64,000 bases of DNA from IMG/VR virus record IMGVR_UViG_3300021086_000003, positions 29,398 to 93,397 of that record, one strand, 5' to 3'. Position numbers and translations under genes: made by a program. Shown here piece by piece: positions 5,911-56,610 of this stretch (its first letter is position 1; every line of letters begins with the position of its first letter). A model generated the notes under the pieces. It was given only the letters and a program-made list of their open reading frames with translations, had not been told where the DNA came from and searched no databases. The stretch comes from a virus.

Positions 5911-6178
5911 GTGACGATCAAGATCACCACCGCTGACCAGTGGGCTGACGCCCTGGATGCCGCAAGCCGCTCCTATGCCCGCGACGAGGGGGGCACCTGT
6001 TGGAGACCTGGTCTCCTGGGCCTACGCGAACGGCACCGCCGCCGGTATCGGCATCGACGGTGAAGCCGACGACGACTCCGGCAGCCAGCTCACCAGCGCC
6101 GACGGCCAATGGGTCGTGCGCTACAGCAGGCAAGACAGCTACTGGCGCGCCGTCGACGCCGACGCCGTGGAGGACTGA
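5911..6178 (+). pseudogene. Small gene split by a +1 frameshift at a G6 tract
   Basis: RBS AGGAG and GTG 5911 frame joins the 5957-6178 frame if one G of 5988-5993 is removed. Confidence 0.6.
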
Positions 6179-6181
6179 GGC

Positions 6182-6601
6182 ATGACCGCCACGCAACGTC
6201 AGATCGAAACGATCGCTACGGAAGCACGCCGCGCTGGATTCGCCGACCCGCAATACGCCTGTATCCAGGCCGGCATCCCCTCGCGCAACTGGAAATACGA
6301 CCTGACGCGCTCCGACGCCAGCGCCCTGATTGACCAGTTGCGTGATGGCCTCACGCCCGCGACCGACGACACGCCGACAGCCTCGTACACCGCGACCGCG
6401 GGCGGCATGTCCGCCGTGGACGCGCTCACCGTGCTCGGCCACACCGCGTCGATAGCTGTCGGTGAAGACAAGCGGCAGGGCAAGGTGTGCTCGATCGAAC
6501 CGTCCGGCAAGGACGGCACCCCCGCGCTGTGCATGCTCCTGACCGATGGCCGCACGTGGCGCATCCGCATCTCCCGCATCACCGCCTGGGCCATGGGCTG
6601 A
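6182..6601 (+). CDS. Hypothetical protein
   Basis: 139-aa ORF with RBS. Confidence 0.75.
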   Translation: MTATQRQIETIATEARRAGFADPQYACIQAGIPSRNWKYDLTRSDASALIDQLRDGLTPATDDTPTASYTATAGGMSAVDALTVLGHTASIAVGEDKRQGKVCSIEPSGKDGTPALCMLLTDGRTWRIRISRITAWAMG

Positions 6602-39621: not shown

Positions 39622-40010
39622 TGTGCTCTCACAGCCCGGAACATGAGACCGACGGCTGGGGTGCGTGCCTCACGGATGGCTGCGAGTGGGGCCACGAAGA
39701 CGCCTACTGGAACAAGGTAGACGCCGGACTGCTTGACGCAGCGAGCGACGCAGCCGCGTACCACCTGATCGATCGGCGACCAGGAAGGACTTACGTCACC
39801 GTGACCGAATACGCCAGCACCGAATCCTCCACCAGCGAACCTGGCTGGGTTACACACTTGATCCATGTCAACGGCAACGCCATCAAGTTCGAGCGGAACG
39901 TCAACTCGGGCGAGACCCACATGCCGGGGGTGGTGCCGTTCGAGACCTACTCGCTGGGTGATGCCCAAGACATCGCGCGAGCCCTGTACGACAAGCGGGC
40001 AACGGTCTGA
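39618..40010 (+). CDS. Hypothetical protein
   Basis: 130 aa in overlap chain. Confidence 0.7.
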   Translation: MMCSHSPEHETDGWGACLTDGCEWGHEDAYWNKVDAGLLDAASDAAAYHLIDRRPGRTYVTVTEYASTESSTSEPGWVTHLIHVNGNAIKFERNVNSGETHMPGVVPFETYSLGDAQDIARALYDKRATV

Positions 40011-41059
40011 TGACCGACCTCGTCCCCATCCCGCCGGACGTGCCAGTTCACCGCGATGACACAGTGTTGCCCGGCACAGCGGAACGCATCGCCAAAGGCG
40101 TGAAGGTCAACACCCGCCGGTCGTACTCCCGAGTCTTGCGACAGTTTGCCGCATGGTGCAACAGCCAGGGCCGCGAATCCATGCCCGCCTCCCCCGCCAC
40201 GTTCGCTGACTATGTCGCGCACCTGTGCGACGAAGGCAAAGCCCCGTCCACCATCAAGCACGACATGGGTGCCATCAGCAAGCAACACCAACTGGCTGGC
40301 TACCCAAAAGGCACACCGGCCGCGACGGCCGCGAACCTGGTGCTCAACGGCTACCGGGAGGAACGGGCTGATGCCGGCTTCCGGGTCACCGAGGCCCCTC
40401 CGATCACCCGTGCTCGGCTACGACAAATGTCGGCGGCCTGCGATGCGTCAACACTCGCAGGGAAACGGGACAGGCTGCTCCTGGTGATCGGTTGGGCGCT
40501 CGCGGGCCGACGGTCCGAACTCGCCGCGCTCCGCATCGAGGACGTCACCATCGAGGATGATGACTTGATGATTCACATTCGCAAGTCGAAAACCGACAAG
40601 GAATCGGTAGGCGAGACAGTGGTTGTGCCCGCTGGCGAGCATGTGGACACTGACCCAATCGGGCTGTTCAACGACTGGATCGGTGCACTGGCCGAGCGGG
40701 GCGAGAGCACGCACACCGGCCCCCTCTTCCGGGCCATCACCGCCAGGGACAAGCTTCAGCGGGAACACGTCGTGATACGGGCCAGTGACGGCGCCGTGCT
40801 CCAGTTCGGCCGGCTCAGTGCTGACGCCGTGAATGACCTCGTCCAACGTGCTGCCCAACGGGCGTGCCTGCCGAACGCGCACCTGTTCTCGGCGCATTCA
40901 CTCCGCGCGGGGTTCGCGACGCAGGCAGCGAACGACGGTATCCCGCAGTCGATCTGGGCTGAGCACGGCCGATGGGAGAAGACATCCCCCGTACCGGCGA
41001 AGTATGTGCGTCGCGCCGACAAGAAGCGGGACAATCCACTCAGGAAGATGGGGCTGTGA
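40010..41059 (+). CDS. Tyrosine recombinase (Xer/Cre-like), intact
   Basis: SAM-like N-domain; RRSE, KSKTD, HSLR, HGRW, KYVR. Confidence 0.93.
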   Translation: MTDLVPIPPDVPVHRDDTVLPGTAERIAKGVKVNTRRSYSRVLRQFAAWCNSQGRESMPASPATFADYVAHLCDEGKAPSTIKHDMGAISKQHQLAGYPKGTPAATAANLVLNGYREERADAGFRVTEAPPITRARLRQMSAACDASTLAGKRDRLLLVIGWALAGRRSELAALRIEDVTIEDDDLMIHIRKSKTDKESVGETVVVPAGEHVDTDPIGLFNDWIGALAERGESTHTGPLFRAITARDKLQREHVVIRASDGAVLQFGRLSADAVNDLVQRAAQRACLPNAHLFSAHSLRAGFATQAANDGIPQSIWAEHGRWEKTSPVPAKYVRRADKKRDNPLRKMGL

Positions 41060-46858: not shown

Positions 46859-46932
46859 AGCGGCGTGGAGCAGCTCGGTAGCTTGCTGGGCTCATATCCC
46901 AGAGGTCGCAGGTTCGAATCCTGTCGCCGCCA
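46859..46932 (+). tRNA. tRNA-Met(CAT), initiator (fMet) type
   Basis: Cloverleaf; A1xC72 mismatch; three G-C pairs in anticodon stem; loop CTCATAT; TTCGAAT; no encoded CCA. Confidence 0.93.
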
Positions 46933-46942
46933 CACATCACAC

Positions 46943-48407: not shown

Positions 48408-49238
48408 GTGTCGCATCCGAGCGTCCCGCACCCCCGGGACCTCATACCGGCCCGCCACAGCCGTGTGGCGCGGGTCAGCGGGTGGGCCGCCAGCCACCTC
48501 GCGGTCCTGTTCGGCGCCACCACCGCCGTGTGGCTGTTCATCGTGGCCCCACTGATCGTGCTACTGTTCCCGGCGCACGTCCAAGCCGTGGTGTTCTACC
48601 TGGCGTCCGGGTGGATTCAACTGTGGGCGCTGCCCCTGTTGACCTACGTGGCGAACCAGGCCGACGTGGCGCGCACCGCGAAAGCGGAAGCCGACCACCA
48701 GGCATTGACCAGCGTGCACACCACCGTGGACGCGGTAGCCGCGATCAACACCACCCAAGACGGCCGGCTCGCCCGCATCGAGGCACACCTGGGCATCCCC
48801 CCGCCCGGCCCGCTCCCATCGAGCGAGGGGAGCGGGCCGGGCGATGCTGTCCCTGCTCCTGACCCTGACCCTGTCCCTCTTCCTGTGACCCATACGCCTG
48901 GACGGGAGGTGTCGTGGCCGCCGTCACCGTGCACGAACTCGCGGTCATGGACACCGCGACCTGGCACTTCCGGGACGCTGTCGCGCTACCCCACTGGTAC
49001 CATCCCGGCCACGGCTCGTTCACTGGCGCGTTCGACCCGTTCCCCGCCTATCCGCACGATTCGGCTGTGGTCGCTGAGATGGTCGCGCACGTCTCCCGGT
49101 GCTGTCCCCCGACGTGGGATGTGCAGGTGTGGGTCGCGGACCGGGAAGAGATCGGCCGCTCGAATGGGTTCAGCAACGTCCACGACGGCGGCCATTACGA
49201 GGGCGACGACTACGTCAAGGACACCCCGACCGGTTTGA
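48408..49238 (+). CDS. DUF1003-like membrane protein; 3' end uncertain
   Basis: Two TM helices, WIQLWALPLL..VANQ; ORF overlaps next gene by 325 nt. Confidence 0.55.
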   Translation: MSHPSVPHPRDLIPARHSRVARVSGWAASHLAVLFGATTAVWLFIVAPLIVLLFPAHVQAVVFYLASGWIQLWALPLLTYVANQADVARTAKAEADHQALTSVHTTVDAVAAINTTQDGRLARIEAHLGIPPPGPLPSSEGSGPGDAVPAPDPDPVPLPVTHTPGREVSWPPSPCTNSRSWTPRPGTSGTLSRYPTGTIPATARSLARSTRSPPIRTIRLWSLRWSRTSPGAVPRRGMCRCGSRTGKRSAARMGSATSTTAAITRATTTSRTPRPV

Positions 49239-49669
49239 TCGTGCTGTCCGGGAAACGTGTCCCGCCGCACCCGGCGATGACCCGCTACCTGGTGGCCCAC
49301 GAGTACGGCCACAACGTGGAGTACATGCTGTCGGTGGCTCGCGGTTCGCGACACGCCCGGAACGATGCAGTTGTCACGGAGTATGCCGCGATGCGCGGAC
49401 TGCCGGAGGTGCACCACGGGTCCGGCGGACGGTGGCACGACGCCGCCAGCGAGGTGCTCGCCTGCGACTTCCGGCTGGTGGTGTGCGGGGTGGAACCCGA
49501 GTTCTGGCCCCACCCAGGCGTCCCGCGACCTGACGACATGCCTGAGGTCGCCGCGTGGTGGGCGGACGCGCTCGCCAGCCTTGACGCGATCCGTCAGCCC
49601 CAAGACACATCGCGGGCCTCCACCGGCTTGGTGGAGGCCCGCGATGTTGCGGTGGCGGTCAGCCCGTGA
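48914..49669 (+). CDS. Putative zincin metallopeptidase-like protein
   Basis: RBS GGGAGG; VAHEYGH and downstream E..A.DF. Confidence 0.7.
   Translation: MAAVTVHELAVMDTATWHFRDAVALPHWYHPGHGSFTGAFDPFPAYPHDSAVVAEMVAHVSRCCPPTWDVQVWVADREEIGRSNGFSNVHDGGHYEGDDYVKDTPTGLIVLSGKRVPPHPAMTRYLVAHEYGHNVEYMLSVARGSRHARNDAVVTEYAAMRGLPEVHHGSGGRWHDAASEVLACDFRLVVCGVEPEFWPHPGVPRPDDMPEVAAWWADALASLDAIRQPQDTSRASTGLVEARDVAVAVSP
49607..49647. terminator. 18-bp perfect inverted repeat at a gene convergence
   Basis: ACATCGCGGGCCTCCACC / GGTGGAGGCCCGCGATGT, 12 nt past the lsr2 stop. Confidence 0.7.
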
Positions 49670-50120
49670 ACCGCGGCGACACCGCCGGACCCTTACGCCC
49701 GGCACGTTGCGGCAGCCGGGGCTTGCTGGACGACGCCGGCTTGTGGGCCTCGTCGTACGCCTCCAACACCGTCACCGGGATACGACCCCGATCCGCGACC
49801 TCGTAGTCGTTGGCCTTGGCCCACTCCCGGATCGCCTGGGTCACCTCCCGGGGCCGGTGTGACCCGGTCGGCACCACCGTCAACCGGCGTGCCGGCGACT
49901 CGGTTTGCCTGCTGACCGCCAGGCCCCGCTTGATTCGGCCACCGGTGCGGCGGCCACCTTCCACGAACTCGCCGAGCACCTCACGCAGTCTCTCGGCGTT
50001 GTCCTCGTTGAGGTCGATCGCGTATTCGACCCCATCGAGTCCGAACGCGACTGATGTGACGTCGTCCCCGGGGGTTCCGTCGATATCATCGATCAGTTCG
50101 ACAAGTACCTTTTGCGCCAT
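49659..50120 (-). CDS. lsr2: Lsr2 nucleoid-associated / xenogeneic silencing protein
   Basis: MAQKV...DDIDG, FGLDG..Y.IDL, IREWA..N..EV.DRGRIP. Confidence 0.95.
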   Translation of the reverse strand: MAQKVLVELIDDIDGTPGDDVTSVAFGLDGVEYAIDLNEDNAERLREVLGEFVEGGRRTGGRIKRGLAVSRQTESPARRLTVVPTGSHRPREVTQAIREWAKANDYEVADRGRIPVTVLEAYDEAHKPASSSKPRLPQRAGRKGPAVSPRFTG

Positions 50121-50252
50121 TCCTATCCTCTCTCCGCCTCAATCGCCAGCAGCGGGAGACCGGACCCGCTACCGAATACAACGGGGACCATCGTAAAGGC
50201 GTCACCATTCACCCCGCCACTCCGCGTACTCGAAACGGCGTCGCAAGCTACA

Positions 50253-50540
50253 TCACCACAACCCCAATGCGACCTCGTCATCAACCGGCCACCGGCGACC
50301 CCGGCGATATCTCCTGACCTTGGATTTCCAAGCTGCCACCTTCGCCGCCAAGGCATCGCGCTCGTCCAGCAGGGCCAACACGGCACGCGGCGACGCCGCC
50401 AAGAACAACTCCAGACGCTGCCTGGACGGTTGTCCGGGCCACTCGCGCGGGCCCGTTGTCATCTGCTGATCCGCCGCTTCCGCGAGTTGCCGCAACTCGC
50501 CCCAGGTGCAAGTGATGATATTCGGGGTGGGTGGCGTCAC
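50253..50540 (-). CDS. Ead/Ea22-like small protein
   Basis: LRQLAEAA...SP..VLALLDE; GTGA overlap. Confidence 0.6.
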   Translation of the reverse strand: MTPPTPNIITCTWGELRQLAEAADQQMTTGPREWPGQPSRQRLELFLAASPRAVLALLDERDALAAKVAAWKSKVRRYRRGRRWPVDDEVALGLW

Positions 50541-51166
50541 AAGGGTCGCCCGGTCCAGGTCGTGGCGGCTTGAGCGATGTACCCGATGCACGTCGGGTTG
50601 ATATCCGACAGCACCGCCTCCTTGCCTGACCGCAAGAAGAACCGGGCGGTACGTCCATAGCCACAGCAGAAGTCCCCCGCGACGTCGTAACGCTGCGCCA
50701 ACGCGTGCAAGAACTCGGGAGCCACACCATAGTTGCCGGCCGCTTCGGCACCCGGCCGGTACCCGACCACGATGGCCTCGTCTTCGTTCAACCGCGTCGG
50801 CAACACGACATCGGGTGCCGGCAGCTTCGCCAGCGCGTGTCGGCCCGTCACGAGATACAGCGGAACTCGCGTGGCCGCCACCAACTCTGTCACCCGTGCC
50901 ATGAACGCGCCGTAAGTGCGGCCATCTGCAACGCCGGCCCGCGTATTGAACGTGTCGAACCCGACCTGCCACGGCGGGTCCGTCACCAGCACATCGCACC
51001 GGTCGAACTCGGCAGGCAGTGTTGCCGTTGACATCAGGTCGTGCACGAACGCCGTACAGCGGGGGCCCTCCCACCGATCCATCGACGGGGCCGTGATCGG
51101 TGGCTTGTGTGCACCGTGGTAGTTCACGGTGGGAATGGAGCTACGTGCACTGCTGCGACTGGTCAT
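50537..51166 (-). CDS. Compact amino-methyltransferase (N6-A/N4-C type, beta-like motif order)
   Basis: DPPW precedes DFCCGYG..A and SDIN; ATGA-coupled to ibrA. Confidence 0.8.
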   Translation of the reverse strand: MTSRSSARSSIPTVNYHGAHKPPITAPSMDRWEGPRCTAFVHDLMSTATLPAEFDRCDVLVTDPPWQVGFDTFNTRAGVADGRTYGAFMARVTELVAATRVPLYLVTGRHALAKLPAPDVVLPTRLNEDEAIVVGYRPGAEAAGNYGVAPEFLHALAQRYDVAGDFCCGYGRTARFFLRSGKEAVLSDINPTCIGYIAQAATTWTGRPL

Positions 51167-52425
51167 GCGGATGCCTCCTGGTCAGGCGTGGTGAACAACA
51201 GTTGCTCGGGAGTGACTCCCCAGTTCTCGCGACGTCGCCTCATCAAGTCTTGATAGGCAACGAATGACGCGGTCGACTTGGGCTGGGTAAAGCCCAGGGA
51301 TTTCCCGTAGTAGTCGTTGCGCAGTAGCGACTTGCAGACGCGGCGCCACGAGGGGACCAGCCGTTGCGCCTCCATACGCGGATCGGCTTCGTCAGGGATG
51401 CCGTTGGCGTAGCCACGCTCGACCCACCACTTGGTGTGCATCAGGATGCGGTTCCGGAACTGTTCCTCAGTGGCGGGCGGCATCGAGTTGACCAGCAAGT
51501 TTGCGAACGATTCCCAGGTGTGCCCTACCGGCTTGGTAATCTTTCGGTAGCCGTTGATCGACCCCCACTCCTGCACATACAAGGCACCGCCGTTGGCTCC
51601 GTTGACCCGGGCGACGACCCGTGCCCAGGTCTCCGGTTCGATCAGGTGAAACAGCCACAAGCCGCGCCGCTGGTCATCACCGTAGGGCTGGCAGATCCGC
51701 ATCTGTGACGGCTTCAGCCCCGCCAGGTGCATCCGGTCATACAGTTCGTTGTGCCGCTTCTCGGGATTCTTCCCGTGGTATGTCCAGATGTCCTGCACCG
51801 TCATGTCATAGATCGGGTACGCGTTGTACACCTGCTCGGTGACCCGCGACGTCCACTGTCGCCCGCCCCACGTGGTTTTCGTGGTGGACGCGATCGTGCG
51901 GAACCTGTTCAGCGACTCGTCGGCTCGGATGCCTACTAGGCAAGCGGTGCGCTCACCCTTGCCGTAGTGGTCCCCGAACAGCACCATGAAGTCCTCGAAC
52001 TCCATGCCCCGCCGGAAGAATGGGTACGTGGCCGGATCGGTGACAGCCCGCTTCGGGGGTGTACGAATCCACGCGTCCTGCCGGTCTGGATCCCAGCACT
52101 GCCACTTCGGCTCGTACACCGACACGGCGTTACGCAGAGCCAGCGGCAGACAGATCCAATGCTCCTCGTCGATCACGTCCGCGTACTCATCAAGACAGGC
52201 AGCGGCGTGATCGATGGTCAGCTTGTACTGGCCCTCAAGGTCGATCAGCATTACCCCGAACCTCCGGCCCAGCCGGCGAGCCTCGTCCCCCACAAGGTGC
52301 AATAAAACCGTGCTGTCCTTCCCGGCACTGAAACTGACGTACACACGCGGGAACTGGTCGAACGTGTCGCTGATCCGCTGTCGCGCAGCCGTGAGAGTAT
52401 TGATTCCCAACCGGGTTTTAGGCAA
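51163..52425 (-). CDS. ibrA: IbrA-like PAPS-reductase/PP-loop + DUF3440 protein
   Basis: SFSAGKDS, IDLEGQY, WICLP..LRNA, GIRADESLNR, YPIYD, MRICQPYGDDQR.GLWL; TTG start with RBS GGAGG. Confidence 0.9.
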   Translation of the reverse strand: MPKTRLGINTLTAARQRISDTFDQFPRVYVSFSAGKDSTVLLHLVGDEARRLGRRFGVMLIDLEGQYKLTIDHAAACLDEYADVIDEEHWICLPLALRNAVSVYEPKWQCWDPDRQDAWIRTPPKRAVTDPATYPFFRRGMEFEDFMVLFGDHYGKGERTACLVGIRADESLNRFRTIASTTKTTWGGRQWTSRVTEQVYNAYPIYDMTVQDIWTYHGKNPEKRHNELYDRMHLAGLKPSQMRICQPYGDDQRRGLWLFHLIEPETWARVVARVNGANGGALYVQEWGSINGYRKITKPVGHTWESFANLLVNSMPPATEEQFRNRILMHTKWWVERGYANGIPDEADPRMEAQRLVPSWRRVCKSLLRNDYYGKSLGFTQPKSTASFVAYQDLMRRRRENWGVTPEQLLFTTPDQEASA

Positions 52426-52561
52426 CGTTTCCTCCGTTCTTCTGGGCTTTCTGGCGACTTCGCCAAGCTGCAACTTGGCAACGGGTCGAGCAATACAAGG
52501 CGTCGGCACGGGCGGTGAGGGGAAGCTCCCGCAGTCGGCACCACGCGCAAAGCCGGCGCAT
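52418..52561 (-). CDS. Small Zn-finger protein
   Basis: CAWC...R.DA.YCS.RC..AWR. Confidence 0.7.
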   Translation of the reverse strand: MRRLCAWCRLRELPLTARADALYCSTRCQVAAWRSRQKAQKNGGNVA

Positions 52562-52562
52562 G

Positions 52563-52790
52563 TCAGTTCCAGTCGCTGTGAACGACACCGCAACCTGCGA
52601 CACCGCTGCCCAGCCATTCACCGTTGGGGCCGGTGGCGTAGGCAGTGACATCTACCTTGCTGTTGCAGTAGCCGGCAAGGGTCCGGTGCGCTTCGGCAAG
52701 GGTGGGAACGGAGACCGTCCACGTGTCGTGAACGCCTGCGATCAGTGAACTGTTCGCCCGAACCATCTTGAGAGTGATCGTGTCAGCCAT
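52563..52790 (-). CDS. Small leaderless protein
   Basis: 75 aa. Confidence 0.65.
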   Translation of the reverse strand: MADTITLKMVRANSSLIAGVHDTWTVSVPTLAEAHRTLAGYCNSKVDVTAYATGPNGEWLGSGVAGCGVVHSDWN

Positions 52791-52796
52791 AGCTAA

Positions 52797-52825
52797 ACCA
52801 TACACGCGATGTATGGGCTACGCAA
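52797..52825 (-). promoter_or_regulatory. Internal promoter in the ibr cassette
   Basis: TTGCGT-N17-TATGGT, 6 nt to ATG. Confidence 0.6.
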
Positions 52826-53264
52826 CCTCTGACGTGGTCTCTGTATGAGCTGATCGAGGGGTAGGTAGTTCGATGGCGAACAGACCGGGGTTCCGATCGT
52901 TCTCCCTGTCAATCAGCCACTCGGCGACAGCCTGATCAGCGGCCTGGTTTGCTGCGTACTGCTCCGCCGCCGTGAGGGTCCACCAAGCCAGCCGGGTGGC
53001 CTGTTCGGTGATCCCCGCGAGATGGCAGCATGTGGCCTGACCTATCCAGGCCCGCCTGTTCTGCGCCATGTCGGTGAGGTTCTGTTCGGCAGCGTTCGGC
53101 CAATCCGCCAACATAGCGCGTGCGGCATCCAAAAACAGGTCAGGGTCACCAAGGATTTGGGCAGCCCGTTCTATCTCGGCAGTCCCGCCGCCGGGCACTT
53201 GCCACATACCGGCCTGCCAGTCCTCCCACACCGTGTACGGGTGGAACACTTGCGGTTCAGGCAT
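52818..53264 (-). CDS. Conserved phage protein of ParB/Ibr loci
   Basis: FHPY..WE....GMW, W..AAEQNLT...NRRAWIGQA..C. Confidence 0.8.
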   Translation of the reverse strand: MPEPQVFHPYTVWEDWQAGMWQVPGGGTAEIERAAQILGDPDLFLDAARAMLADWPNAAEQNLTDMAQNRRAWIGQATCCHLAGITEQATRLAWWTLTAAEQYAANQAADQAVAEWLIDRENDRNPGLFAIELPTPRSAHTETTSEVA

Positions 53265-53448
53265 CGTGCACTCCCAGCAGTACGGCTGCGACCCGGTTGG
53301 CCCACTCCATGCCGCCGTGCTCGCAGTCCCCTCCGCTGCCTGCCAGCCGGATGTCCCCGGCCAGGTTGATCAGGGACGCCGCGTAGCCGGGTGCGAGATT
53401 GGCCGCCGTCTCCAGTTGCTGCGCGGCCCGCTTGGTGAGGTCAGACAT
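53257..53448 (-). CDS. Small hypothetical protein
   Basis: RBS GGAGG; 63 aa. Confidence 0.65.
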   Translation of the reverse strand: MSDLTKRAAQQLETAANLAPGYAASLINLAGDIRLAGSGGDCEHGGMEWANRVAAVLLGVHDA

Positions 53449-54193
53449 TGCCAGCCTCCATCGCGGTCATGCCACCGTTGACACCGGCATCGGCCAAGGC
53501 TGAGTCATCAAGGTCATCGTCCAGCGGCCCCAGTTCGGCTTCCCACGCTTCGCTGAACTCACGGTCAGCGAAAGCACCCGCAAGGCCGGTGATCTGGGTA
53601 AGGCGCAGCACCTCATCGGGGTCCATTCCGAGCTGCTGGCCGATCTTCTTGTCGGACCAGTTGCGCCGCTTCAGTTCTAACACGATGTCGGACATCTTGA
53701 TCACTTGGTGCTTGCCGCGTGCCCGGTTGTGCCGGATCGTGGACGCCATCCGGTCCGGTCGGTCGCCCCGCTCCGCTCGGATCTGCACCAATGGCAGGTA
53801 GCCCTGAACGCGTTCCGCAACGTCCGGGAATTCCTTGCCGACCCGGGACCGGTGGAAGCCGTCCACGACTTCGCGGTGCCCGTCTTCGGCGTTCGACACG
53901 ATGGGCTGAGTGAAGCCGTCCGCCAGGATGGACAGGCGCAGCAACTCCATTTCGGGGGCCGCCACGGTGTTCGGGTTGTAACTGTTGGCCTGGACTTCGT
54001 CGGCTGGCACCCATTCGACGAAGTCGACTGGTTCGGAACTGAACGGGCTGAACTCGGCGAGCACGGCCCGCAGTTCGTTCAGGCGTGCCACTGTGTCGGG
54101 CAGGTCAAGGCCGCGGAACCAAAGCTTGGCCAGCGCGCGCAGGTTCTTCGCGATGCGGCTGTCATCGGGCGGTTGGTCGTTGACACTGGTCAC
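53441..54193 (-). CDS. ibrB: IbrB-like ParB/Srx-domain protein
   Basis: V.WV....V.AN.YNPN.VA..EM.LL..SI..DGFTQPIV, VVDGFHR, RMASTIRHNRARGKH, LGM..DEV.RL. Confidence 0.92.
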   Translation of the reverse strand: MTSVNDQPPDDSRIAKNLRALAKLWFRGLDLPDTVARLNELRAVLAEFSPFSSEPVDFVEWVPADEVQANSYNPNTVAAPEMELLRLSILADGFTQPIVSNAEDGHREVVDGFHRSRVGKEFPDVAERVQGYLPLVQIRAERGDRPDRMASTIRHNRARGKHQVIKMSDIVLELKRRNWSDKKIGQQLGMDPDEVLRLTQITGLAGAFADREFSEAWEAELGPLDDDLDDSALADAGVNGGMTAMEAGNV

Positions 54194-54228
54194 TGGGTTA
54201 TCGTCTCCCGTTTCGTGGTGGAAGGGGT

Positions 54229-54447
54229 TCAGTCGTGGGGCGGGTTGTCCGGTGCCGACTCTGCGGCACTTCCGGGTGTCGCAGAGTTGCGTCGGTGTTT
54301 TAGCGCCTCCTTGAGGAGCACTTGGATCATGTTGTTCCGGTCCCGACTGTCCTGAATAGCCTCGTTTCGGACATCCTGATCCAGATCGACAGGTAGCCGC
54401 AGTGAGAAGCGGACGATCACGGGCACCTCCTCCGGCTTGTTCGTCAT
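54229..54447 (-). CDS. Arc-like ribbon-helix-helix repressor (leaderless)
   Basis: RFSLRLP.DL...VR..A....R..N..I..LL..AL; -10 TAGAGT ends 6 nt before ATG. Confidence 0.8.
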   Translation of the reverse strand: MTNKPEEVPVIVRFSLRLPVDLDQDVRNEAIQDSRDRNNMIQVLLKEALKHRRNSATPGSAAESAPDNPPHD

Positions 54448-54533
54448 GACGCCACTCTAGCACCCATCGGCACCCTGTAGGCGTCCAGTGGCACCACTTG
54501 GCGCGGCGTGTTGCATCCGGGGAGCGTGAGGCC

Positions 54534-55130
54534 ATGGCAATCCAGCCCCCCACCCCAGGTCATGCCAGGCCACTATGCGGCGCCAAGAAGCGGCAGGGCG
54601 ACGGCACGTGCGGGCGGCCCGCCGGCTGGGGCACCCCGCACGCTGGGGCCGGGCGGTGCAAGTTCCATGGCGGCAACACCCGCAACCACCAGAACGGCGG
54701 ACACCTCGCCCTGGTCGAGCAACAACTCCACCACGACCGCGACGCCATGGCCGCCCTACTCGGCGCCGCGGACCCGGTAGAGGACCCGCTGCGGGAATTG
54801 CAGGTACTGGCAGGCGAGGCGAAGCGATGGAAGCAACTAGTCGCCGAACGCGTGTCCGGCCTGACCAGTCTCGGTTATGCCGGCGCGGTGGGTGAGCAGG
54901 TCAAGGCTGAGGTGCAGCTGCTGGAACGCGCGATGGACCGGCTCGGGCACCTCCTCCTGGGGATCGGCCGGCTGAACATCGACGAGCGGCTGGCACGCGT
55001 GTCCGAACAACAGGCCGCGACCGTGGCATCGGCGCTGGGTGTGGTGTTGTCCGAGATGGGCCTGTCGCATGACCAGCAGCGGGAGGCGCGTTCCCGTGTC
55101 GCCCGCCACCTTCGCGTCGCTGCTAGCTGA
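54534..55130 (+). CDS. terS: Terminase small subunit
   Basis: CGAK..., RCKFHGG motif; directly upstream of terL. Confidence 0.8.
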   Translation: MAIQPPTPGHARPLCGAKKRQGDGTCGRPAGWGTPHAGAGRCKFHGGNTRNHQNGGHLALVEQQLHHDRDAMAALLGAADPVEDPLRELQVLAGEAKRWKQLVAERVSGLTSLGYAGAVGEQVKAEVQLLERAMDRLGHLLLGIGRLNIDERLARVSEQQAATVASALGVVLSEMGLSHDQQREARSRVARHLRVAAS

Positions 55131-56610
55131 CCGCCTGGACCCACCGGACCACCCGGTGTTCGACCTACTCGGCTACGTCCCCTCCCCGAAGCAGCAACTG
55201 TTCCACGCTGCCACCGAGTTCGACGTGCTTTTCGGCGGAAGCCTTGGCGGTGGCAAGACCAGAAGTCTGGTGGCAGAAGCGATCCGGGCGTGCGTGAAGT
55301 ACCCCGGCATCCGGGTTGGCGCGTTCCGGCGGACATACGGGGAGTTGAAAGAGTCCCTGATTGCCGAGTTGGCGGAGATGCAATTTGCCGTCCCGGTGGG
55401 TGCGAATTGGAACGGCACCGAGTATGAGCTCAGGTTTCCCAGCGGCAGCCTCATCATGTTCCGGTACGCCGAATCGATGGCGGACGCGACCCGCCGGCAG
55501 GGTGGCCAATACCAACTCCTGATCTTCGATGAGCGCACCCTGACCCCGCCAGATGTGGTGACCTATCTGGAGACCCGGCTGCGGTCCGGTCGCGCTGATC
55601 TGCCGGTGCTGGGCATCCGGTCATCGGCGAACCCGGGTGGCCCAGGTCACGGCGCGGTGCGGGACCGGTACATCACGGCCACCGACTACGGCCAGAAGGT
55701 GTTCATTGACAAGGTGGGCCGCACGGTGCGGTTTATCCCTTCATCGATGGATGACAACCCGCACCTGGACGAGAGCTACCACCAGCGGCTGTTGGCGCTT
55801 CCCGAGGACATGCGTCGCGCGTTGCGAGAGGGCGACTGGGGTGTTTTCTCGGGGCAGATGTTCAGAGAGCTAAACCGGGATCGGCACGTCATTGACCCGA
55901 TCACCCTGCCGGCATCGTGGCGTCGCTACAACGGGGTGGACTGGGGTTACACCGCCCCGTGGTGTGTGCTGTGGGCCGCAGTGGACGAGGACGGCCGGGT
56001 GTGGGCGTACCGGGAGATCTACCGGACCCAGGTCGGCGAAGCGGCACAGGCCCAAGCCATCCTGGACGCCGAGGGCGATGACGAACACATCGTGGCCCGG
56101 TTCGCCGACGACGCGATGTGGGCGACCCGCGGCGATGCCCGGCCCATCGCCGACGTGTACGCCGAGAACGGCGTTTACCTCACCCCGGCAGGGAAGGGTG
56201 CAGGGTCCAGGGTCATTGGGTGGCAGCGGGTCCATTCCTACCTGGGCGAGGCCCCGGCGTGCCCGCATCACCGAGCGCAGGGTTGGACGACGTGCCCGCG
56301 GATGCACATCTTCTCGACGTGCCCAAACCTGTTCCGGGAGCTACAGGACTTGCCGCACGCCACGAAGGGCAACCCCGAGGACGCCGATACGGCAGCGTCT
56401 GACCATGCTGCCGATGGGATTCGTTATTTGCTCACCAACCTGGGCACCGGGCCGGAGTTCACGGTGTTCGAGGACGACAAGCCGGCCGTGCAGGACGCGG
56501 GCACTCCGCCGCCGATGGTGATCGTGCCGCAGTACACCGACCAGTTGTGGGTCACCGACGAAGACGAGGACACCCCGCAGCGCGGGCTGGTCATTCAGTC
56601 GCCGTACTAA
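55096..56610 (+). CDS. terL: Terminase large subunit
   Basis: GGSLGGGKT, LIFDE, SANPGG.GH, GVDWG, DHAADG.RY. Confidence 0.95.
   Translation: MSPATFASLLADRLDPPDHPVFDLLGYVPSPKQQLFHAATEFDVLFGGSLGGGKTRSLVAEAIRACVKYPGIRVGAFRRTYGELKESLIAELAEMQFAVPVGANWNGTEYELRFPSGSLIMFRYAESMADATRRQGGQYQLLIFDERTLTPPDVVTYLETRLRSGRADLPVLGIRSSANPGGPGHGAVRDRYITATDYGQKVFIDKVGRTVRFIPSSMDDNPHLDESYHQRLLALPEDMRRALREGDWGVFSGQMFRELNRDRHVIDPITLPASWRRYNGVDWGYTAPWCVLWAAVDEDGRVWAYREIYRTQVGEAAQAQAILDAEGDDEHIVARFADDAMWATRGDARPIADVYAENGVYLTPAGKGAGSRVIGWQRVHSYLGEAPACPHHRAQGWTTCPRMHIFSTCPNLFRELQDLPHATKGNPEDADTAASDHAADGIRYLLTNLGTGPEFTVFEDDKPAVQDAGTPPPMVIVPQYTDQLWVTDEDEDTPQRGLVIQSPY

Follow-up and report, generated by a model that had tools for sequence, protein, structure and literature searches.

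A leftward operon next to the terminase genes of a temperate actinophage carries a conserved core of four protein families: the ParB-like protein IbrB, the all-α protein o148, the PP-loop protein IbrA and a compact methyltransferase (MT). The operon lies in a 64,000-nucleotide (nt) stretch of DNA, hereafter called the window, which corresponds to bases 29398-93397 of the IMG/VR virus record IMGVR_UViG_3300021086_000003. The four proteins are proposed, with moderate confidence, to form a DNA-directed, ATP-dependent adenylyl-transfer module in which methylation is a tailoring step, that is, a four-protein version of IbrA/IbrB. The proposal takes gene order, translational coupling, linkage, fusions, folds and motifs as its observed ground, and deduces from them that DNA is the substrate, that IbrA transfers an adenylyl group, in which order the steps follow and what role they serve.

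IbrA and IbrB have been named since 2002, are very widespread, have paralogues in Escherichia coli K-12 (ybdNM) and are biochemically blank. The cassette of the window is a compact and tractable version of the pair with two dedicated partners. Particular to this case are a dedicated methyltransferase family that escapes Pfam, a probable bridging family (o148) and a mechanistic steer towards adenylyl transfer. Were the product a new DNA mark, it would be relevant to phage-host arms races and to artefacts of restriction and sequencing in metagenome data, and the module might yield a tool enzyme.

A methyltransferase family tied to IbrA

MT (50537..51166, minus strand; 209 amino acids, aa) is translationally coupled to ibrA, since its start codon overlaps the ibrA stop as ATGA (51163-51166), an overlap already described in a first-pass annotation made from the sequence of the window and now confirmed by reading it. 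The protein resembles a compact β-class amino-methyltransferase in which motif IV (DPPW, residues 63-66) precedes motif I (DFCCGYG, residues 165-171) and the motif II acid (D188). Its AlphaFold2 (AF2) model, with a predicted local distance difference test (pLDDT) score of 91, finds β-class DNA N6A/N4C methyltransferases in all of its PDB matches 1-41 (E from 1e-5, probability 0.99-1.00, template modelling score ~0.5), including M1.HpyAVI, TTHA0409, CcrM, M.BceJIV, rotifer N4CMT, M.MboIIA, M.RsrI, type III Mod and M.PvuII. At the level of sequence the sole link is a match of the family profile to motif I of M.RsrI (E 0.015). Neighbours in the ESM Atlas are small (210-240-aa) viral N6_N4 methylases and ParB_N-methylase fusions; many such viral enzymes already exist, as does the compact M1.HpyAVI, so that the description of MT as unusual for being 'TRD-less' has to be dropped. 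Judged from the model, the fold and motifs of MT favour DNA as the substrate.

Neither PF01555 nor any other Pfam domain matches MT, and PF01555 is absent from the rest of the phage genome too. The family comprises 114 close homologues in a large protein database, none of which carries a Pfam domain, and it keeps motif I as D-F/P-C-C-G-x-G, the motif II acid and an N-terminal YH...HD region. It becomes visible only through that database and through alignment-based scans; a single-sequence scan of viral contigs and a tblastn search of isolated phages gave no matches.

Viral and metagenome collections together with three look-ups yielded 124 MT loci, or 101 once duplicates were removed, 15 of which are uninformative as their contigs end near MT. 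IbrA is found in 85 of the 86 informative loci (the sole exception is L092), at a distance of no more than 300 nt in 61 of them, and the loci span a guanine-cytosine (GC) range of 25-73%. The partnership of MT with IbrA is near-obligate and extends over two deeply diverged IbrA clades, which are 54-88% and 25-36% identical to the IbrA of the window. The commonest arrangement is MT-IbrA-IbrB, where IbrA is only 25-36% identical to its counterpart here; the order of the window, IbrB-o148-IbrA-MT, occurs in seven loci, and other permutations also exist. Taken with the DNA-methylase fold, the linkage suggests a DNA substrate and a methylated product. The first-pass annotation had advanced a DNA-modification pathway, with either adenylation or thiolation as its chemistry: the preference for DNA is retained on the strength of the MT fold, whereas thiolation is not, as discussed below. 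It had also named the conserved linkage of the methyltransferase and of the 148-aa open reading frame (ORF) to ibrAB as one of the points on which its proposal would stand or fall, and this linkage is observed for MT in the loci just described and for o148 in the IbrA loci and fusions that follow.

o148 as a probable bridge between IbrB and IbrA

A second survey covered 80 genome loci with IbrA homologues at 48-70% identity. IbrB stands beside IbrA in 76 of them. o148 (52818..53264, minus strand) occurs in 31, always directly 5′ of IbrA and mainly in the order IbrB-o148-IbrA. Together with MT, these families make up the conserved core. In 12 loci o148 forms a fusion with the C-terminus of IbrB, and in two proteins (P0140 of L211 and P0216 of L209) with the last ~90 residues of DUF3440, the C-terminal domain of IbrA. 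In a further variant, P0117 of L207, a terminase-small-subunit domain takes the place of the ParB domain ahead of the IbrB tail and o148. Because Rosetta-stone fusions join it to both IbrB and IbrA, o148 is probably a bridging subunit between the two, and the fusions suggest a defined complex.

The AF2 model of o148 is a seven-helix, all-α structure (pLDDT 89.6). The family is large, with 852 clusters at 50% identity in a profile search (E<=1e-3), and stands apart from known folds: the best Foldseek match in the PDB had an E of 1.3, the best Z in a wide VIA-align comparison was 4.2, clusters of the AFDB returned the family itself only, and two ESM Atlas searches came back empty. An annotation in Microcystis phage Mwe-JY13 that presents o148 as a second ParB/Srx domain was rejected, given that hhalign detects no similarity to IbrB and that the model is all-α.

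IbrB (53441..54193, minus strand; 250 aa, GTG start) matches phrog_2159 (3.8e-69) and, weakly, ParB_N. Its invariant motifs are NxYNPN, DGF-TQP, DGFHR and RHNRARGKH. The family profile matches Noc and the ParB structure 4umk (2.3e-6), with DGFHR falling on the arginines of the GERRxR NTP (CTP) box. An IbrB::o148 fusion followed by IbrA (P0138, L208:188-2101) carries a ~300-aa intein-like insertion exactly inside the DGF|TQP motif; because of this position, the insertion appears to mark the motif as functionally critical.

IbrA and the case for adenylyl transfer

IbrA (51163..52425, minus strand) contains a PAPS_reduct domain (PF01507, 1.8e-11) and a DUF3440 domain (PF11922, 5e-31), both above the cut-off, and matches phrog_2302 (2.7e-74). 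Its start was set at the TTG at 52425, behind a GGAGGA site, which gives a protein of 420 aa; a longer ORF of 484 aa was rejected as the extent of the gene. The PP-loop reads SAGKDS. In an alignment of 43 sequences S33, G35, K36, D37, S38, E170, S171 and R174 are invariant and G165, I166 and R167 are invariant or nearly so, and neither the SxGKDS PP-loop nor the GxRxxES...R motif varies across 152 IbrA sequences.

Pairs annotated as 'PAPS reductase' and 'ParB-like nuclease domain' (PHROGs 2302 and 2159) are known from many phages, and IbrA/IbrB occur in 220 of ~50,700 isolated-phage records. Homologues 48-70% identical to the IbrA of the window are found in Pseudomonadota, Bacillota, Bacteroidota, Parcubacteria, Actinomycetota and archaeal metagenome-assembled genomes, including Thorarchaeota. 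The lower GC of the cassette and identities of up to 70% in such distant phyla suggest that the core genes were acquired horizontally.

CysD and FAD synthase are adenylyltransferases. The IbrA profile finds its nearest solved structures in CysD (1.9e-6) and in human FAD synthase (7.6e-6, PAPS-reductase-like domain), followed by PAPS reductases. None of the 152 IbrA sequences surveyed shares an invariant cysteine with all others, C110 being kept in 88% and position 245 being Cys in 61% and Ser in 39%. The missing conserved cysteines make sulfur chemistry a less promising direction than adenylyl transfer.

This evidence bears directly on the possibility that the system thiolates the DNA backbone or bases in the manner of Dnd or Ssp, with sulfur supplied by the host IscS. 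Such a reading would draw on the likeness to DndB/DndC, also a pair of a ParB-fold and a PAPS-reductase-fold protein, and on weak, partial PADLOC matches of IbrA to DndC (3e-5). On the DndC equivalog TIGR03183, however, IbrA scores 19.2 bits against a cut-off of 290.4, and a scan of NCBIfam found nothing above any cut-off. The first-pass annotation had noted that the window lacks a cysteine desulfurase, and this extends to the whole 102.9-kb record, where PF00266 is absent, although a host IscS might stand in for it; DndD/E-like and SspB/C-like genes were not seen among the conserved neighbours. Dnd-like phosphorothioation is therefore unlikely, because no cysteine of IbrA is invariant and a desulfurase is missing from the phage, and with the adenylyltransferase relatives of IbrA added, thiolation in general appears most improbable.

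Variable partners of the core

Several further families accompany the core in particular lineages. A family of ~196 aa with an [ED]DD motif lies directly beside MT in 26 loci with MT-IbrA-IbrB cassettes (for example L099:3157-3747 and L104:1513-2103); no Pfam domain matches it, and its best PDB profile matches are the GT-A glycosyltransferases R655, KfiA and EXTL2 (E 0.013-0.16). In L211 an ectoine-synthase-like cupin (5987-6376; PF06339, 9e-42) sits between IbrA and IbrB, 3′ of an o148::DUF3440C fusion and of a family A DNA polymerase. The GT-A-like and cupin partners fit a pattern in which a core activating enzyme is combined with swappable tailoring enzymes.

Other neighbours are recorded for their recurrence. 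A family of ~100 aa with the motifs FAKTMP..PHxY and INR is found 5′ of MT in 40 loci with MT-IbrA-IbrB cassettes (for example L082:4462-4812 and L090:5110-5451), and neither a Pfam match nor a relation to o148 by hhalign was detected for it. A family of ~135 aa (fam7), also devoid of Pfam matches, lies directly 5′ of IbrA in 36 IbrA-IbrB loci (for example L010:2355-2798 and L033:5597-5980); the idea that it is a diverged o148 was rejected (hhalign probability 0.1%), and so was, by the same method, a relation of the families c4 and c7b of MT-IbrA-IbrB loci to o148, MT or IbrB. Amidoligase_2 and GGACT genes on the opposite strand adjoin the MT-IbrA-IbrB cassette just before the terminase in L082 (8987-10648) and in 8 other loci.

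One locus connects IbrA with DNA hypermodification. In L209 (273-3113) a stand-alone protein consisting of HMUDK_hel (2e-39), the helical domain of the 5-hmdU DNA kinase, whose homologues are 51-60% identical and include one annotated as aGPT-Pplase clade 1, is followed by an o148::DUF3440C fusion and then by IbrA. The same slot is filled in L212 and L214 by the P-loop domain of a 5-hydroxymethyldeoxyuridine (5-hmdU) DNA kinase, in L213 by a TAGT glycosyltransferase and in L215 by a 372-aa protein that carries no annotation and on visual inspection resembles a GT-B glycosyltransferase. L212 is a canonical thymidine-hypermodification cluster with rSAM, ADDT, PLP and GNAT genes. IbrA thus occupies, in this single case, the slot of a DNA-base-activating enzyme. 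The adenylyl-transfer proposal also has a bolder form. IbrA would be the PP-loop counterpart of the 5-HMUDK step on ordinary DNA and would AMP-ylate a base or backbone oxygen, giving a new bulky mark or an activated leaving group, after which lineage-specific tailoring (MT here, GT-A-like or cupin proteins elsewhere) would lead to varied hypermodifications. This form is offered tentatively and is somewhat unlikely as it stands; if true, it would mean PP-loop DNA adenylylation in hundreds of phage lineages and, through ybdNM, in the core genome of E. coli. A 5-hmdU pathway or substrate in the phage of the window itself was considered and rejected for lack of a hydroxymethylase, ThyX or ADDT, and no homologue of HMUDK_hel was found among the ORFs of the phage genome.

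The same partners can be read as signs of small-molecule chemistry. On the Srx side of the ParB/Srx fold the activity is that of an ATP-dependent phosphotransferase, and it may be imagined that IbrA adenylylates a phosphorylated or sulfated small molecule while IbrB acts as an Srx-like phosphotransferase. The module would then make or consume a nucleotide-linked metabolite, whose use would fall to methyl- or glycosyltransferases with non-DNA targets, or which would disturb host nucleotide signalling. The nearest solved relatives of IbrA do act on small molecules, and a GT-A-like protein and an ectoine-synthase-like cupin would be at home in such a pathway. Yet the PDB matches of MT are DNA methyltransferases only, the IbrB profile lines up with the DNA-binding proteins ParB and Noc and not with Srx, P0117 exchanges its ParB domain for a DNA-binding domain of the terminase small subunit, and in L209 IbrA can take the slot of a DNA kinase domain. 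A metabolite as the product is consequently unlikely.

Proposed mechanism and its weak points

In the adenylyl-transfer proposal, IbrB, with an intact equivalent of the NTP box (DGFHR), would bind DNA and might clamp it or slide along it, and o148 would join it to IbrA at the latter's C-terminal DUF3440 lobe. IbrA would then attach AMP, taken from ATP, to an oxygen atom of the nucleic acid so bound, where the adenylyl group could serve as a mark in its own right or as an activated leaving group. MT would place a methyl group derived from S-adenosylmethionine on the product of IbrA or on a nearby base, with target recognition borrowed from the complex. The benefit for the phage would probably be DNA marked against host nucleases.

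Several points weigh against this proposal. Proteins and small molecules are also among the targets of ParB/Srx and PP-loop folds. Biochemical characterization of IbrA, IbrB, YbdN, YbdM or DUF3440 was not found in the searchable literature. In the MT family as a whole motif IV loosens to [DE]-x-[PSA]-[WYF], and because of this some members may not methylate. The link to HMUDK_hel is a single 3.1-kb contig, and the phage record contains no hydroxymethylase of the thymidylate-synthase type (PF00303), no ThyX (PF02511) and no ADDT (PF18724, a weak negative as its control matched nowhere). IbrAB lies within replication modules in Nebkiss and Mwe-JY13 and next to the terminase elsewhere, and because of these differing locations its timing and role are not uniform among phages. 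Finally, the sole published IbrAB phenotype is genetic: in work from 2002, Sandt and colleagues are said to have found that IbrAB activates prophage eib genes.

That phenotype, to which the pair owes its name, is the starting point for a regulatory interpretation, in which IbrB and IbrA would be DNA-bound transcriptional co-activators or anti-silencers and MT an independent, orphan anti-restriction methylase that happens to share their operon. E. coli ybdNM adjoins citR, described as H-NS-regulated, and is repressed by YbdO/CitR (PMC9068703). IbrB itself is ParB-like with a conserved basic C-terminal motif, and a gene for the nucleoid-associated protein Lsr2 lies downstream of the cassette here and in two relatives. 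A pure regulator, however, would have no need for the invariant PP-loop catalytic site of IbrA, and the near-constant company of MT and IbrA is unlike what an independent methylase would show. Neither Lsr2 nor the RHH protein described below is a conserved neighbour, and the regulatory phenotype could itself stem from DNA modification. Co-activation as the primary function is thus considered rather unlikely.

Genome setting

The host record is a 102,915-bp IMG/VR virus contig obtained from a soil metagenome, with a GC content of 67% and a completeness estimated at 87% by CheckV. Its first 134 nt and last 135 nt overlap with 99% identity. The contig probably represents the whole phage genome, either circular or with terminal redundancy, though the IMG/VR entry describes it as linear. 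The GC content falls to ~0.63 across the cassette (50000-54000), against 0.67-0.70 in the flanks. An integrase is encoded at 40010-41059 and a tRNA-Met at 46859-46933, and the terS, terL and portal genes run from 54498 onward; the DNA is therefore that of a temperate actinophage and not of a bacterial chromosome. The divergent packaging genes terS and terL (54498..56610, plus strand) were recognized from matches of terS to phrog_9231 (weak) and phrog_3678, and of terL to Terminase_6N (2.9e-9) and phrog_2 (2.8e-37).

A temperate life style invites the thought that the module serves prophage defence or superinfection exclusion, either by marking self-DNA or by a ParB-like nuclease attack on incoming DNA, all the more as nicking of DNA by ParB-like domains is on record (cited in PMC12839542). 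PADLOC, however, recognizes no defence system here, a conserved nuclease or effector partner is absent across 180 loci, and the module is common in phage contigs of lytic type, between replication and packaging genes. Such a role for the module is quite improbable, and adenylyl transfer to DNA remains the preferred account.

Operon layout and lineage-specific members

The cassette is a single, tightly packed leftward operon, divergent from terS and extending from RHH to o96. The genes named in the first-pass annotation are all present on the minus strand between 49659 and 54447, divergent from terS (54498, plus strand). Read along the minus strand, the order is RHH, IbrB, o63, o148, o80, a 47-aa zinc ribbon (Zn47), IbrA, MT and o96; stop/start overlaps link the genes from RHH to o96, as read from the sequence. 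ibrB lies upstream of ibrA and apart from it, as had been stated, with o63, o148, o80 and Zn47 in between. Four extra small ORFs, namely o63, o80, Zn47 and o96, are counted into the operon. No Pfam or PHROG match was obtained for MT, o148, o63 or o80. A terminator-like hairpin at 50426-50410 was discounted, as it lies inside o96 and as such sites are rarer than in shuffled sequences.

RHH (54229..54447, minus strand; 72 aa) is the first gene of the operon, which agrees with the Arc-type repressor that had been placed at its head; the Arc type itself is plausible, the RHH_5 match being sub-threshold only (E 3e-4, 20.9 bits against a Pfam cut-off of 26). A TAGAGT lies ~6 nt 5′ of its ATG, and the RHH transcript looks leaderless, with TAGAGT as a possible -10 element. 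An RHH homologue 5′ of IbrB is seen only in L089, and RHH occurs in 1 of the 124 MT-bearing loci.

At the other end, 132 nt beyond o96, lies the gene for the Lsr2-like nucleoid-associated protein (49659..50120, minus strand). This protein matches Lsr2 (PF11774, 2.2e-23), Lsr2_DNA-bd (PF23359, 7.4e-17) and phrog_1223 (1e-30), and has both the N-terminal dimerization domain and the C-terminal AT-hook-like DNA-binding domain. Lsr2 is found in just 2 of the 124 MT-bearing loci. RHH and Lsr2 are shared with the closest relatives only and are not conserved parts of the system, contrary to their inclusion in the cassette as first annotated. Convergent with Lsr2 is an ORF of 251 aa (48914-49669, plus strand) with an HExxH-like motif (HEYGH) and a high GC content at third codon positions (GC3); no PHROG matches it, and the related phage contig L089 has an ORF 83% identical to it.

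Among the small ORFs, o63 (53257..53448, minus strand) overlaps each neighbour by 8 nt, has a GC3 of 0.83 and has a homologue solely in L089. o80 (52563..52790, minus strand; 75 aa from the ATG at 52790) is missing from the closest relatives L081, L087, L088 and L127, where o148 abuts IbrA, and is an insertion specific to the phage of the window. Zn47 (52418..52561, minus strand), a zinc-ribbon-like ORF with a CxxC...YCSxxC pattern, has its ATG 1 nt past the o80 stop and overlaps the TTG start of IbrA by 8 nt at its 3′ end; no PHROG matches it, and it is probably a recent insert because it is absent from the nearest relatives. The small helical ORF o96 (50253..50540, minus strand) overlaps MT as GTGA, is kept in L087 and L088 and shows a weak match to Ead_Ea22 (4e-4) under the cut-off. 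RHH, Lsr2, o63, o80, Zn47 and o96 would appear to be passengers or regulators of this phage lineage. An SNF2 gene was not found in the phage record.

Comparison with known systems

The closest counterparts of the cassette are IbrA/IbrB from the IbrAB island of E. coli ECOR-9 and YbdN/YbdM of K-12, which have the same IbrA architecture (PAPS_reduct and DUF3440 with a PP-loop) and a ParB/Srx partner with a DGxHR motif. They differ in gene order, since the window has IbrB first with o148 and small inserts before IbrA, whereas the order in E. coli is IbrA-IbrB. The version in the window adds the two dedicated families o148 and MT, and it is carried by an actinophage, where it diverges from the terminase genes.

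The Dnd system offers a likeness of folds. DndB and DndC also combine a ParB-fold protein (with DGQHR in place of DGFHR) and a PP-loop ATP pyrophosphatase of the PAPS-reductase fold. Unlike Dnd, IbrA lacks conserved cysteines or Fe-S ligands, and DndA, DndD and DndE are missing. In the Dpd 7-deazaguanine system a DNA-modifying enzyme has the help of the ParB-like NTPase DpdB (PMC12839542), which is reminiscent of the relation proposed here for IbrB. In contrast to DpdA, no enzyme of the TGT family is encoded in the window, and the fold of IbrA is unrelated.

For MT, the β-class N6A/N4C methyltransferases such as M1.HpyAVI and the phage ParB_N-N6_N4_Mtase fusions share the fold, a motif IV that precedes motif I, and the DPPW and FxGxG-type motifs. 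The methylases of the fusions are, like MT, associated with ParB, which is a separate protein in the window. MT differs from the β-class enzymes by the absence of PF01555, by the Cys-Cys of its motif I, by its N-terminal YH...HD and by its near-obligate linkage to IbrA.

Thymidine hypermodification, in which the 5-HMUDK kinase is followed by aGPT-Pplase/ADDT transferases (Lee et al. 2018, 2021: PMC5889632, PMC8989533), provides a parallel for the proposed logic. In both cases an ATP-dependent enzyme that activates DNA is followed by variable tailoring, and in L209 IbrA stands after HMUDK_hel. The difference lies in the activator, which in the cassette is a PP-loop enzyme expected to transfer AMP and not a P-loop kinase, and which works in a phage that has neither a hydroxymethylase nor ADDT.

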